DNA of 64,000 nt from a virus (Duplodnaviria > Heunggongvirae > Uroviricota > Caudoviricetes), in the IMG/VR virus record IMGVR_UViG_3300043467_001216; one strand, given 5' to 3'. A program made the position numbers and the translations under genes. Below, piece by piece: positions 5,489-61,545 of the stretch. Positions within the stretch are counted from its first letter, which is position 1. Each line of letters opens with the position of its first letter. A model generated the notes under the pieces. That model made no database searches, was not told the DNA's origin, and was given only the letters and a program-made list of their open reading frames with translations.

Positions 5489-5668
5489 ATGGAAACATTA
5501 GAACAAATCAAAACTTTGACTGAGGAATTGTCAGTTGACGCAACTAAGTTCTTTAAAGGTAATAACAGTGCGGGAACAAGAGCGAGACAATCGGCTCAAA
5601 AATTAAAGAATTTATTACAATCTTTAAGAGAAGAGATTTTAACGGAAAGAAAAAAAGAGGAGAAGTAA
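5489..5668 (+). CDS. histone H1-like small basic DNA-binding protein (Bacteroidetes type)
   Basis: 59-aa ORF below ORF-track cutoff; FFKGNNSAGTRARQSAQKLKNLLQSLREEI matches the ~60-aa H1/Hc1-like proteins common in Bacteroidetes. Confidence 0.5.
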   Translation: METLEQIKTLTEELSVDATKFFKGNNSAGTRARQSAQKLKNLLQSLREEILTERKKEEK

Positions 5669-5856
5669 TGAACGACTTTAATACAATATATCTTTTTGTA
5701 TTTATCTTTTCAATGTTAACTGTGTTAAGAACAGTTTTCAGGTTTATAGTTTCCCTTCTACAAGAATCACCACAAAAATTGGTTCTTAGTAGTAGGGAAC
5801 TAATATTCCTTGCCATTTCAATATCATATTGTTTAACGTATATAATAAAATTTTAA
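5668..5856 (+). CDS. small membrane protein
   Basis: TAATG coupling to upstream ORF; two hydrophobic helices. Confidence 0.4.
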   Translation: MNDFNTIYLFVFIFSMLTVLRTVFRFIVSLLQESPQKLVLSSRELIFLAISISYCLTYIIKF

Positions 5857-30307: not shown

Positions 30308-30742
30308 ATGAAATCGAGAGTGAATATAGTTAACAAGAAAGTTAAGTTTGAATACTTTTTCGTTGAGACATTTGTCGTTGGGGTTAAACTACAGGGTTCT
30401 GAGGTTAAGTCAATCAGTGACTCAAAAGTTTCAATGACTGATACGTATTGTTACTTTAAGAATGGTGAGTTATATGTTAAAGGGTTAAACATTGCTAGTT
30501 CTAATGTGTCATACGCTCACGAACCTATGAGGGAACGTAAATTGTTAATGAAGAAGAAAGAATTGCGTAAACTTGAGAACGAATTAATTAATGGGTTAAC
30601 GATTGTTCCGTATAGATTGTATCGTAATGAGACCGGGTTGATTAAGATGGAGATTGTATTAGCCAAAGGTAAGAAGTTGTGGGATAAGAGAGATTCGATT
30701 AAAGAACGAGATATAAATAGAGAATTAAAACGAGGTCTATGA
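30308..30742 (+). CDS. smpB: SsrA-binding protein SmpB
   Basis: full-length similarity to bacterial SmpB as recalled: NKK.KFEYF..E.F..G..LQGSEVKS, RKLLM...EL.KL and AKGKKLWDKRDSIKERD tail. Confidence 0.9.
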   Translation: MKSRVNIVNKKVKFEYFFVETFVVGVKLQGSEVKSISDSKVSMTDTYCYFKNGELYVKGLNIASSNVSYAHEPMRERKLLMKKKELRKLENELINGLTIVPYRLYRNETGLIKMEIVLAKGKKLWDKRDSIKERDINRELKRGL

Positions 30743-56482: not shown

Positions 56483-57196
56483 ATGAAAAAGAAAATTGTT
56501 GTATTCACAGGTGCTGGTGTTTCAAGAGAAAGTGGTGTCTTGACATTTAGAGATAGTGTGGATGGGTTATGGGAGAATCATAGTATTGATGATGTTTGTA
56601 CACCTTCAGGATGGAAAAAAGACCGTGAGAAGGTTTTGAATTTTTATAACGATAGACGAAGACAATTACCTACGGTTGAACCTAACTCAGCCCACACAGG
56701 TTTGGTTAAGTTAGAGGACAAATATGACGTAACAATCGTTACCCAAAATGTTGATGACCTACACGAAAGAGCGGGTTCATCTAAGATATTACATTTACAC
56801 GGTGAGTTGACTAAAGCCAGAGGTGCGATGTATAGTCATAAGACAAGTCCATTGGATAATATCGTGGTGATTGGTTATAATGATATTAACATTGGTGATA
56901 AGTGTGAGATAACAGGTTCACAGTTGAGACCCCACATTGTTTGGTTTGAAGAGATGCCATTCAACGTCGAGGAAAGTTATGACGCAATAACCGAATCTGA
57001 TGTGTTAATCATTATCGGAACTAGTTTGATGATTGGTTACACATTAAATCTATTATCAAGTGTTAGTGATGAGTGTAAGATTTATTATATTGACCCCCAA
57101 CCAAGTAGGTATTTGGACCATTTAGGTAAAGATATTACTTACATTGAGAAACCGGCAACGGAAGGTGTTGAATTAATTTTAAATGAATTGTTATGA
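56483..57196 (+). CDS. cobB: Sir2-family NAD-dependent protein deacylase (CobB type)
   Basis: VVFTGAGVSRESGVLTFRD, QNVDDLHERAG, HLHGE, RPHIVWFEE and IIIGTS are collinear with CobB; most zinc-module cysteines are absent. Confidence 0.9.
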   Translation: MKKKIVVFTGAGVSRESGVLTFRDSVDGLWENHSIDDVCTPSGWKKDREKVLNFYNDRRRQLPTVEPNSAHTGLVKLEDKYDVTIVTQNVDDLHERAGSSKILHLHGELTKARGAMYSHKTSPLDNIVVIGYNDINIGDKCEITGSQLRPHIVWFEEMPFNVEESYDAITESDVLIIIGTSLMIGYTLNLLSSVSDECKIYYIDPQPSRYLDHLGKDITYIEKPATEGVELILNELL

Positions 57197-59926: not shown

Positions 59927-60012
59927 AGTCAGGTAATGCGTAATGGGAAAACGGTTATCTCATCCAACTAAAAAGGGTTGCATCGTTGTGGGTTCGAGTC
60001 CCACCCTGGCTA
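59927..60012 (+). tRNA. tRNA-like RNA 1 (non-canonical core)
   Basis: acceptor AGTCAGG/CCTGGCT (U3-G70); perfect T arm GTGGG-TTCGAGT-CCCAC; D-loop-like TAATGGGAAAA; ATGCG/TGCAT helix replaces the D and anticodon stems; no CCA encoded. Confidence 0.45.
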
Positions 60013-60272: not shown

Positions 60273-60371
60273 AGTCAGGTGGCGTAATGGTAAAAGCGTT
60301 GGTCAGTGGGTTTAAACACCTAACGGTAAAAATGGGTACCAGATATACAGGTTCGAATCCTGTCCTGACTA
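60273..60371 (+). tRNA. tRNA-like RNA 2 (99 nt; 34-nt domain where the anticodon loop should be)
   Basis: AGTCAGG/CCTGACT acceptor; T arm ACAGG-TTCGAAT-CCTGT; TTGGT/ACCAG helix closes 34 nt; discriminator A. Confidence 0.5.
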
Positions 60372-60389
60372 CTGACAATAAAACTTTGG

Positions 60390-60442
60390 GGTCAGGGTTT
60401 TGTTGGCACTGAAAGGTGTGTGTTTTCAACGGTTCGAGTCCG
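60390..60442 (+). pseudogene. 3'-truncated tRNA-like fragment
   Basis: GGTCAGG 5' strand and CGG-TTCGAGT-CCG T-arm remnant but no 3' acceptor strand; abuts element 3. Confidence 0.4.
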
Positions 60443-60556
60443 AGTCAGGTGGCGGAATTGGTAGACGCTAACGGTGGTAAGTGTGATAGTCAGAGCTCGG
60501 GAACTCCTATCAAAAAGTTTGGTTCACACATACAGGTTCAAGTCCTGTCCTGACTA
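60443..60556 (+). tRNA. tRNA-like RNA 3 (114 nt; Leu-type D arm)
   Basis: AGTCAGG-TG-GCGGAATTGGTAGACGC is the class II tRNA-Leu 5' part; T arm ACAGG-TTCAAGT-CCTGT; core closed by GTGTGA/TCACAC; discriminator A. Confidence 0.55.
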
Positions 60557-60569
60557 CTAAAAATAAGAT

Positions 60570-60800
60570 ATGAATAATAGAGAACAAAAATTGATTGATT
60601 TAATGTTTGAAATGGTGTTAGTGACAACAAACGACCCCGTATTTTGTAAAAGACCAAGAGGTGAAAGAATGGCTTGGGTTGCAGATAATTTGAGGGGTTC
60701 GGGATTTGATACACATCCAATCGGAATGAGTTGGGGGGTTTTGGTTGACTCTTCATTCAGGGACACAATTGATGTTAAAACAGAAAATTTAGATAATTAA
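60570..60800 (+). CDS. hypothetical protein embedded in the RNA array
   Basis: 76-aa ORF between tRNA-like elements with normal amino-acid composition. Confidence 0.5.
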   Translation: MNNREQKLIDLMFEMVLVTTNDPVFCKRPRGERMAWVADNLRGSGFDTHPIGMSWGVLVDSSFRDTIDVKTENLDN

Positions 60801-60949: not shown

Positions 60950-61119
60950 CTGAATTAGCCCTCTGGTGGTGCACCGCTAAGGAACGAAGATAGAGATTAC
61001 AGATATGGGTTGAAATAAAAAGACCTTCGGGTTTACACATATGTTGGCGTGGACGCTCTCCGAATCGTATGTCGGCATAGTTTGTGTGTTCTAGGGATAA
61101 TTTAAAAACACACATTTTT
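60950..61119 (+). ncRNA. structured spacer
   Basis: AGACC-TTCG-GGTTT (UUCG tetraloop hairpin); GTGTGTT/AACACAC 7-bp stem; GGTG-gtg-CACC; only a minus-strand shadow ORF. Confidence 0.3.
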
Positions 61120-61235
61120 AGTCAGGTGGCGGAAGGGATTGAGGTAACTCGGTCGTTGGTAGACGCACATATCCATACAGGGATGATGCAGTACTGTATT
61201 ACTGTGTCTTACAAGTTCGAATCTTGTCCTGACTA
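61120..61235 (+). tRNA. tRNA-like RNA 5 (116 nt; 21-nt hairpin inserted in the D loop)
   Basis: GGCGGAA[GG GATTGAG GTAA CTCGGTC G]TTGGTAGACGC; T arm ACAAG-TTCGAAT-CTTGT (compensated); TATCC-ATACAG-GGATG stem with 6-nt loop; variable hairpin CAGTA/TACTG. Confidence 0.55.
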
Positions 61236-61296: not shown

Positions 61297-61411
61297 AGAT
61301 AGGTGGCGGATGGGTAGACGCAGAGGTGAGGGGATATAGTAACACTCTGAAAGTAGCAGTCTCGTTACGTCCTACGGTGAAATCGAACAGGTTCGAATCC
61401 TGTCCTATCTA
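61297..61411 (+). tRNA. tRNA-like RNA 6 (115 nt; possible Leu-GAG with expanded loop)
   Basis: acceptor AGATAGG/CCTATCT (compensated relative to the others); D arm GCG-GATGGGTAGA-CGC; CAGAG/CTCTG closes a 19-nt loop that begins GU-GAG-G; T arm ACAGG-TTCGAAT-CCTGT. Confidence 0.55.
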
Positions 61412-61461: not shown

Positions 61462-61531
61462 AGCGGAGTAGTGTAATTGGTAACATATTGGATTGTCTCC
61501 TTTGATGTGGGTTCGAGTCCCATCGCCGCAA
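61462..61531 (+). tRNA. tRNA-like RNA 7 (70 nt; poor anticodon stem)
   Basis: D arm GTGT-AATTGGTA-ACAT; T arm GTGGG-TTCGAGT-CCCAT; acceptor has two mismatches; the anticodon region TTGGA-TTGTCTC-CTTTG pairs poorly. Confidence 0.45.
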
Positions 61532-61545
61532 CTAAAATTTAAATT

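Follow-up and report, generated by a model that had tools for sequence, protein, structure and literature searches.

What a 21-nt hairpin is doing inside the D loop of a tRNA-like element is the question raised by positions 61120-61235 of a 64,000-nucleotide stretch of DNA from a virus of the Caudoviricetes (IMG/VR record IMGVR_UViG_3300043467_001216), which we refer to as the window. We conclude that the hairpin is maintained as a structural part of an RNA and that it reflects neither decay nor a sequencing accident. Judged by its sequence, the element that carries it is not a tRNA, but belongs to a very large phage-only family of RNAs that derive from tRNA-Leu and lack the anticodon arm. The 21 nt are probably a selectively maintained RNA hairpin that is retained in the mature RNA, where it would form an expansion arm on a non-decoding, tRNA-shaped scaffold.

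The element is the fourth copy of a set of related elements in the window (copy 4) and is built up as follows, with nucleotides numbered according to the Rfam tRNA alignment of a paralogue.

61120-61235, + strand: tRNA-like element copy 4, carrying the D-loop hairpin; 116 nt, a class-II-like cloverleaf without a decodable anticodon loop, recognised by its fold and 3' motif
61120-61126, + strand: acceptor 5' strand AGUCAGG, pairing with 61228-61234
61129-61134, + strand: D stem 5' strand GCG (nt 10-12), then G13, A14 and A15
61135-61155, + strand: 21-nt D-loop insert between nt 15 and 16, a hairpin module of class A (defined below)
61156-61166, + strand: remaining D arm, U16, U17, G18, G19 and UAGA, then the D stem 3' strand CGC
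61167-61210, + strand: body, in place of the anticodon and variable arms, with two hairpins in the predicted fold and ending in U48
61211-61227, + strand: T arm ACAAG-UUCGAAU-CUUGU
61228-61235, + strand: acceptor 3' strand CCUGACU and discriminator A73, followed by a C; no encoded CCA

The insert reads GGGATTGAGGTAACTCGGTCG. When 61135-61155 is deleted from 61120-61166, the remaining string is identical to 60443-60468 of an insert-free paralogue, copy 2 (AGTCAGGTGGCGGAATTGGTAGACGC, 26 nt). This exact string test, which was used in place of an uninformative MAFFT alignment of the 5' parts of the copies, demonstrates that the 21 nt sit as an exact insertion between GGCGGAA and TTGGTAGACGC; excision would join GGCGGAA to UUGGUAGA, i.e. 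GGCGGAA onto UUGGUAGACGC. The insert folds into a 7-bp stem formed by 61137-61143 and 61148-61154 (G61137-C61154, A61138-U61153, U61139.G61152, U61140.G61151, G61141-C61150, A61142-U61149 and G61143-C61148) and the loop GUAA at 61144-61147, which fits GNRA; G61135 and G61136 on the 5' side and G61155 on the 3' side lie outside the stem. The hairpin was obtained when the insert was folded in isolation (-8.7 kcal/mol, z = -3.94, with 0 of 200 shuffles as stable) and recurs when the full 116-nt element is folded to minimum energy (-39.2 kcal/mol, z = -2.70). Both the precise D-loop insertion and the 7-bp stem with two G-U pairs and a GTAA cap had been proposed in the original prediction, and both are borne out by these results. 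No bulge-helix-bulge is present at the insert: its helix is continuous over 7 bp, and its flanks can form at most two weak pairs across a G/G mismatch.

The hairpin is not a chance feature, because the identical 21-mer occupies the same D-loop position in five contigs with different flanks and related hairpins are widespread. The body of copy 4 was found in two IMG/VR contigs and in about 17 further metagenome contigs (L-numbers are our labels for retrieved loci or contigs); it is identical in L126 and differs by one or two substitutions in most of the others. Combined with this body, the window allele is present unchanged in L262, L269, L274, L282 and L283, which are independent metagenome contigs, so that the same insertion does exist in related phage genomes. 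Three of these (L262, L274 and L283) have a compensatory change in the T stem, ACAGG/CCUGU as compared to ACAAG/CUUGU in copy 4. In about 16 contigs the body is combined with a second allele, GGAGUGGGG-UGU-CCUCGCUC (equal to UGGAGUGGGG-UGU-CCUCGCUCG), one of them with a C-to-U change that keeps a G.U pair, and once, in L271, with a third D-loop state, an insert of ~65 nt. Both hairpin alleles are present in L282, where about 500 nt separate the two paralogues that bear them. These alleles are homologous; what distinguishes them is a U.G pair that has become G-C, with a change on each side, an A-U pair that has become G.U, and the loop or tip. Differences between the window and L156 are concentrated in the hairpin, where 7 of 22 columns differ versus 4 of 266 outside it (Fisher p = 1.5e-6), and the ~290 nt around the hairpin are about 99% identical. 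Coding DNA of the same pair is only 70-79% identical, as against 93-97% for the tRNA-like elements of related phages.

Inserts at this site are by no means limited to copy 4. The original prediction placed the hairpin in one tRNA-like element; it proves instead to be one of several classes of module that recur in the D loops of a family with hundreds of members. Retrieval was by exact patterns and the IMG/VR contigs are partly redundant. The pattern AGGTGGCGGAA-N14-44-GGTAGACGC was found in at least 119 IMG/VR stretches, and among the matches listed there were 73 distinct inserts of 18-44 nt, which fall into several classes and are mostly predicted hairpins; longer inserts, up to about 65 nt, occur in L093 and L271. 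In a sample not selected for inserts, ~6 of 100 parsed members carry one. The commonest class, class A, has the form (U)G, one strand of a 7-8 bp helix, UGU or AUUU, the other strand, and G(A)U, and includes the window insert.

Covariation within class A is strong. In 23 distinct sequences 98.4% of the cells are paired, and stem changes are compensated: there are 42 double-change cells versus 12.2 in shuffles, a number reached in 0 of 500 shuffles. These double changes affect six of the eight pairs, with four pair types at pair 2 and five at pair 4, and shifting the register by one to three columns makes the signal collapse. Since U.G is the commonest state at pair 3 (15/23), only RNA of the + strand fits. 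The uninterrupted helices are without a bulge-helix-bulge throughout the class, and several insert classes keep their loop sequences while their stems covary. Together, the compensated stem changes and the recurrence of the same allele in homologues support the earlier view that random decay did not produce the insert. The label of a GNRA hairpin holds for the window allele, which has the GUAA loop, but not for the class, whose tip is GGG(G)-UGU/AUUU-(C)CCC. Near its loop the window allele, GAG-GUAA-CUC, is thus an outlier with respect to the consensus GGG(G)-UGU-(C)CCC.

Within 2.3 Mb of fetched DNA all distinct contexts of class A hairpins were D loops (21/21, and 11/11 for the commonest sequence) and none lay elsewhere. 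The exact window 21-mer was encountered once outside any tRNA-like element, at 65-85 on the - strand of L285, where its boundaries are those of the insert and where it lies between the stop codon of a coding sequence and an intrinsic-terminator-like hairpin. The L285 phage displayed no protein similarity to the window within the 13 kb compared. From the size of the collection, the chance expectation of such a case is estimated at ~0.03, and this single case could be due to chance.

Some of the other insert classes resemble known RNA segments. Class F, AGUAGUGGCGAGCGAAC, agrees in the sense orientation with E. coli 23S rRNA 241-257 at 16 of 17 positions (E 0.002); it occurs in L153 (8064, + strand), L184 (3260, + strand) and L180 (1875, - strand), with closing stems that by eye differ between the copies. 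Class G, UGAAAGGCCAAU, equals E. coli 23S rRNA 779-790, again in sense (12/12, E 0.008), and occurs in L174 (2210, - strand), L145 and L215 (3496, + strand). These similarities suggest that class F and G inserts mimic rRNA hairpins. The ~65-nt insert of L093 (4211, + strand) and L271 has within its long stem an inner, T-arm-like hairpin, GUGG-UUAGAAU-CCAC.

Copy 4 has the 7-bp acceptor stem, the D arm with G18G19 and the T arm with a UUCRANU loop of a cloverleaf, but instead of an anticodon arm with a 5-bp stem, a 7-nt loop, U33 and a purine at 37, it has a 4-5 bp stem with a 6-nt loop. In the predicted fold this first body hairpin has 4 bp, with a fifth, U.G pair possible, and the loop AUACAG; the second has 9 bp and also a 6-nt loop. 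Copy 4 and copy 3 gave no match to the Rfam tRNA model even at E <= 10, three window copies matched it at 30-50 bits with large insertions at the place of the anticodon arm, and ARAGORN called none of the family elements in the window, its sole call there being at 61462-61532.

The same architecture is widespread in phages. The T-arm/acceptor motif was found in more than 120 IMG/VR stretches, often several times per contig, and from all loci we extracted 304 distinct family-like sequences with a median length of 116 nt. The acceptor is exactly AGUCAGG in 267 of these 304, U8 is present in all of them, A14 in 292, A15 in 288, U48 in 271, A73 in 272 and a GGNA motif in the D loop in 284, and the T loop UUCRANU is invariant. 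The base after the discriminator is C in all 12 commonest trailer triplets, and CCA is encoded in 6 of the 304. Of 234 parsed members, just 2 show a canonical anticodon arm where one is expected. In the hairpins of the bodies, loops of four nucleotides are the most frequent, with GAAA and GUAA leading. The idea that bodies act as anticodon-loop decoys was rejected, as anticodon-like loops made up 9 of ~830 predicted loops and no anticodon was enriched. Family elements sit within phage tRNA arrays among genuine tRNAs, 19 of them in L048, and 25 together with a transfer-messenger RNA (tmRNA) in L093; the genuine tRNA-Leu genes of the same arrays have acceptor stems that differ from AGUCAGG. Among cellular genomes, one from each of 185,579 species, only 25 stretches were found, all of them contigs of metagenome-assembled genomes (MAGs) and mostly of Bacteroidota, which argues that the RNA is phage-specific and not a host tRNA. 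On the window elements and 13 family-bearing loci, Rfam returned the tRNA and tmRNA models only, with the family elements matching only the former. Literature searches by sequence and by concept yielded no description of the family; generic tRNA-like candidates in IMG/VR have been reported by Fremin et al. 2023 (PMC10690425), and a paper on AcrIIIA1 proved to be unrelated. Apparently, then, the family is undescribed and is carried by uncultured freshwater phages.

Comparison of members indicates that the D loop and the body behave as two separate slots. The 234 parsed members form 183 body clusters, 16 of which have more than one D-loop state, nine of these including the state without insert; conversely, 13 inserts are paired with two or more unrelated bodies. 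Because bodies occur with several insert states and inserts with several bodies, the two slots assort independently. Most simply, modules would be swapped when paralogues recombine across invariant segments of the scaffold. Members with an insert and members without one have bodies of the same length (medians 60.5 and 62.5 nt). We considered the hairpin as a substitute for the missing variable arm and rejected this, given that body length does not change and that one and the same body is found with and without an insert.

What is conserved in the scaffold coincides with the minimal identity set of E. coli LeuRS, which needs A73, the A15-U48 Levitt pair, G18G19, A20a and the tertiary pairs that link D loop and T loop, and which can do without the anticodon and variable arms (PMC9976931). 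All of the required elements are present in copy 4 and, going by this match at the level of sequence, the family RNAs may be leucylated. The retained features (acceptor, A73, U8-A14, A15-U48, G18G19 and T loop) would give an L-shaped top half with its elbow, its processing signals and the LeuRS set, while the two cargo slots, in the D loop between nt 15 and 16 and in the body, would take swapped hairpin modules. Host tRNA enzymes (RNase P, a 3' nuclease and the CCA-adding enzyme) would process and stabilise the scaffold. The D-loop hairpin would then project from the hinge beside the 15:48 pair and could provide a handle or specificity tag by which a protein or RNA partner recognises the molecule, or modulate how the elbow is recognised, for instance by LeuRS. 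A bolder version, which we put forward only tentatively, is that the family constitutes combinatorial, leucine-identity 'tRNA scaffolds' of freshwater phages, with two cargo slots and with some hairpins copying loops of host 23S rRNA, which would act as decoys or aptamers for host RNA-binding factors; the window hairpin would be one such cargo.

Several points weigh against retention of the hairpin as a selected RNA arm. Structure, conservation, covariation, modularity and restriction to phages are shown by the comparisons above; transcription, processing, presence in the mature RNA and binding partner are inferred. Members were retrieved by sequence pattern, which in itself accounts for part of the invariance seen in the acceptor, T arm and D-loop flanks. 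There are two discrete alleles without intermediates, which module exchange explains as well as selection does, and the L285 copy could point to mobility at the DNA level. The tip of the window allele differs from that of the class consensus, so that this allele may have a partner other than that of the class, and an insert beside G18G19 might abolish LeuRS recognition instead of using it. Finally, no partner molecule was found for the RNAs, and clustering of open reading frames (ORFs) across 262 loci revealed no protein that travels with them, the best family being present in 26 of the 262.

The opposite fate for the insert, its removal from the RNA, was raised by the original prediction, which compared it to the non-canonical tRNA introns of archaea. 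Excision of an intervening sequence, whether of the archaeal type or a phage or bacterial equivalent, would leave exactly the canonical D loop GGAAUUGGUAGA, and the finding of the same body with and without inserts, with many kinds of insert at one precise site, resembles the presence and absence of introns. We nevertheless regard this as very unlikely. Against the comparison stand the uninterrupted 7-8 bp helix, which leaves no bulge-helix-bulge, a length of 21 nt, which is far below self-splicing size, and the bacterial context, with SmpB encoded in the window and a tmRNA in another family-bearing locus. Conserved loops and covarying stems in several classes are, moreover, what is expected of parts of a mature RNA, and in an RNA without an anticodon there is no obvious gain from restoring a 'tRNA'. 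To our knowledge, bacteria lack EndA, the tRNA splicing endonuclease. A group I intron was rejected as a candidate: its P3-P9 core requires at least about 200 nt and sits in the anticodon loop, as compared to 21 nt in a D loop here, and there was no Rfam intron match. Extremely improbable, in our view, is a neutral, chance palindromic insertion into a decaying tRNA pseudogene. It could account for the failure of ARAGORN and of the Rfam tRNA model to recognise copy 4 and for the fragments in the array, such as the truncated T-arm piece at 60385-60442, but it does not sit with an allele that is identical in six genomic contexts, with the covariation across class A, with tertiary-interaction nucleotides that are almost invariant, with compensated changes in T stem and acceptor, or with elements that are 93-97% identical in phages whose coding DNA is only 70-79% identical.

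Selection could also act on the DNA, the hairpin being either a mobile palindrome with a strict target site or an insertion that breaks a homing-endonuclease site in the conserved scaffold. The exact 21-mer with the same boundaries in the unrelated intergenic context of L285 would fit this, as would the discrete alleles and the hairpin's being a hot spot of divergence. Putative GIY-YIG-endonuclease-like proteins, read as such from N-terminal sequence only, are encoded in 21 of 262 loci, and in T4 segB lies in the tRNA cluster. We judge it unlikely: the frequent, strand-specific G.U pairs would be A.C mismatches on the other strand and therefore argue for selection on RNA, class A hairpins were absent from DNA other than D loops in the 2.3 Mb, many unrelated insert classes of 18 to about 65 nt at one site are unlike one mobile element, and L285 is a single case with its chance expectation of ~0.03. 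Also unlikely, though less so, is that the hairpin acts mainly as an anti-determinant or switch, where a changed spacing between A15 and G18G19 would block or retune elbow recognition by LeuRS, RNase P or a host tRNA-targeting defence enzyme, giving charged and uncharged, or sensitive and resistant, isoforms of the same body. The insert does lie in the hinge region with the LeuRS identity elements A15-U48, G18G19 and A20a, the same body exists with and without inserts, two alleles are present in one contig, and body length is independent of the insert. A simple steric block, however, does not need several classes with conserved loops. A retained hairpin on a non-decoding scaffold stays our preferred reading.

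The closest known kind of RNA is T4 RNA C (species 1 RNA, rnaC). Like RNA C and RNA D of T4, which are small stable RNAs encoded in the phage tRNA cluster beside the GIY-YIG endonuclease gene segB, the family elements are non-decoding RNAs within a phage tRNA array, and RNA C too has acceptor-like paired ends, a canonical T arm (CCGGG-UUCGAAU-CCCGG) and a large body without an anticodon arm. The likeness is one of kind: by eye, and with no alignment run, no sequence similarity was apparent. RNA C has no recognisable Leu-type D arm, no D-loop insert is known in it, and it occurs as single copies, as opposed to the multi-copy family with two exchangeable slots. The biological role of RNA C is still unknown (PMC3014915).

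Other systems share particular features with the family. With bacterial class II tRNA-Leu it shares the D arm GGCGGAAUUGGUAGACGC, A73, A15-U48, G18G19 and the T loop, and copy 4 has a long extra arm; unlike tRNA-Leu it has no 7-nt anticodon loop, and it has another acceptor, hypervariable bodies and D-loop inserts. Non-canonical D-arm introns of archaea are also short inserts at a position other than the anticodon, the removal of which restores a canonical D loop, but these have the bulge-helix-bulge, whereas the family insert has a covarying stem and conserved loops and resides in a non-decoding RNA of a bacterial phage. The tRNA-like domain of tmRNA and the modules of the bacterial Y RNA YrlA are likewise non-decoding and keep the elbow of acceptor and T arm; the family differs from them in lacking G3.U70 and an mRNA-like region, and in having an intact D arm and a topology that is not permuted. 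In engineered 'tRNA scaffold' RNAs a foreign RNA is grafted into a tRNA body for stability, and the MHV68 TMERs are viral tRNA-linked small RNAs with the cargo attached outside the tRNA. These resemble the family in that variable RNA cargo is carried on a constant chassis, stable and processable, made of the tRNA top half, but the family chassis is natural, phage-encoded and multi-copy, with a second cargo slot inside the D loop. Unlike REP/MITE-like palindromes, class A hairpins were not found dispersed through intergenic DNA in the 2.3 Mb, the window allele at L285 being the one exception.

RNAs C and D of T4 are long-known phage tRNA-cluster RNAs for which a function was never found, and the family makes this old question testable. 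It provides hundreds of natural variants that follow rules: an invariant, LeuRS-like top half, two tolerant sites and discrete, covarying modules. It also indicates that, under selection, the D loop can accommodate a 7-8 bp helix, and inserts as long as about 65 nt, at the junction of nt 15 and 16, a tolerance that matters for the structural biology of tRNA and for designing RNA scaffolds. In addition, the elements confuse tRNA annotation. ARAGORN reports some of them as tRNA-Leu, Ser, Glu or Pro, with anticodon arms that are implausible, as at 5644-5733 and 6093-6190 of L048, 2223-2316 and 5430-5516 of L018, 283-368 of L012 and 13807-13896 of L057; tRNA counts in phage annotations are therefore likely inflated.

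The array of the window contains the following paralogues of copy 4.

59927-60012, + strand: divergent sixth member, acceptor AGUCAGG/CCUGGCU, T arm GUGGG-UUCGAGU-CCCAC
60273-60371, + strand: copy 1, no D-loop insert; Rfam tRNA 49.5 bits, with a 33-nt insert at the anticodon-loop position
60443-60556, + strand: copy 2, the insert-free reference of the original prediction; Rfam tRNA 35.5 bits
60806-60949, + strand: copy 3, 144 nt, discriminator G; no Rfam match
61297-61411, + strand: copy 5, with the compensated acceptor AGAUAGG/CCUAUCU; Rfam tRNA 30.5 bits

The window copies have in common the acceptor AGUCAGG/CCUGACU (compensated in copy 5), a tRNA-Leu-like D arm and a canonical T arm, the discriminator is A in all but copy 3, and their shared 3' motif occurs 5 times in the window versus 0 expected. 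The body of the sixth member is homologous to bodies in L002, L047 and L082. A truncated tRNA-like piece at 60385-60442 (+ strand), GGUCAGG ... CGGUUCGAGUCCG, with a T-arm fragment, abuts the 5' end of copy 2 without a spacer, and in L126 and more than 10 metagenome contigs it abuts the copy 4 orthologue instead, which indicates that the conserved acceptor sequence is a point at which arrays are reshuffled. A 76-amino-acid ORF without a Pfam match (60570-60800, + strand) separates copies 2 and 3. The 170 nt directly upstream of copy 4 (60950-61119, + strand) are 99-100% identical in L156 and L266 and 76% identical in the MAG contig L250, and fold well; they may represent another RNA, a leader or a recently exchanged cassette. 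The sole ARAGORN call, at 61462-61532 (+ strand), is an odd tRNA-Thr(UGU), scored by Rfam at 41.9 bits, that may not decode normally. A primer-binding or antisense target for the conserved 3' end or for the hairpin was considered and rejected, no complementary site being present in the window. Scans for sigma-70 promoters and terminators gave background levels, and a Bacteroidota-type promoter motif was not enriched.

Array sequences gave no nucleotide match to cultured phages by BLASTN. A minimal scaffold query against cultured phages (INPHARED) retrieved ordinary tRNA fragments only, the best being a tRNA-Leu fragment beside the integrase of Synechococcus phage S-TIP37, probably an attachment site and not a family member, and PHROGs searches with ten large window proteins were uninformative. 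The window is AT-rich (about 31% G+C), with small genes that are nearly all on the + strand, and related contigs reach 187 kb. It encodes SmpB, the partner protein of tmRNA (30308-30739, + strand; Pfam E = 1.4e-44); no tmRNA was found in the 64 kb. SmpB in the window and the tmRNA in L093 indicate that the window genome is that of a large phage of a bacterium. The MAG matches, mostly to Bacteroidota, are a further pointer to a bacterial host. Also encoded are NUDIX, DnaJ, thioredoxin and cytidylyltransferase-like domains, DNA methylases (two DNA methyltransferase domains) and, 3 kb upstream of the array, a Sir2-family protein (56483-57193, + strand); a link to NAD metabolism is conceivable for the Sir2, NUDIX and cytidylyltransferase-like domains.

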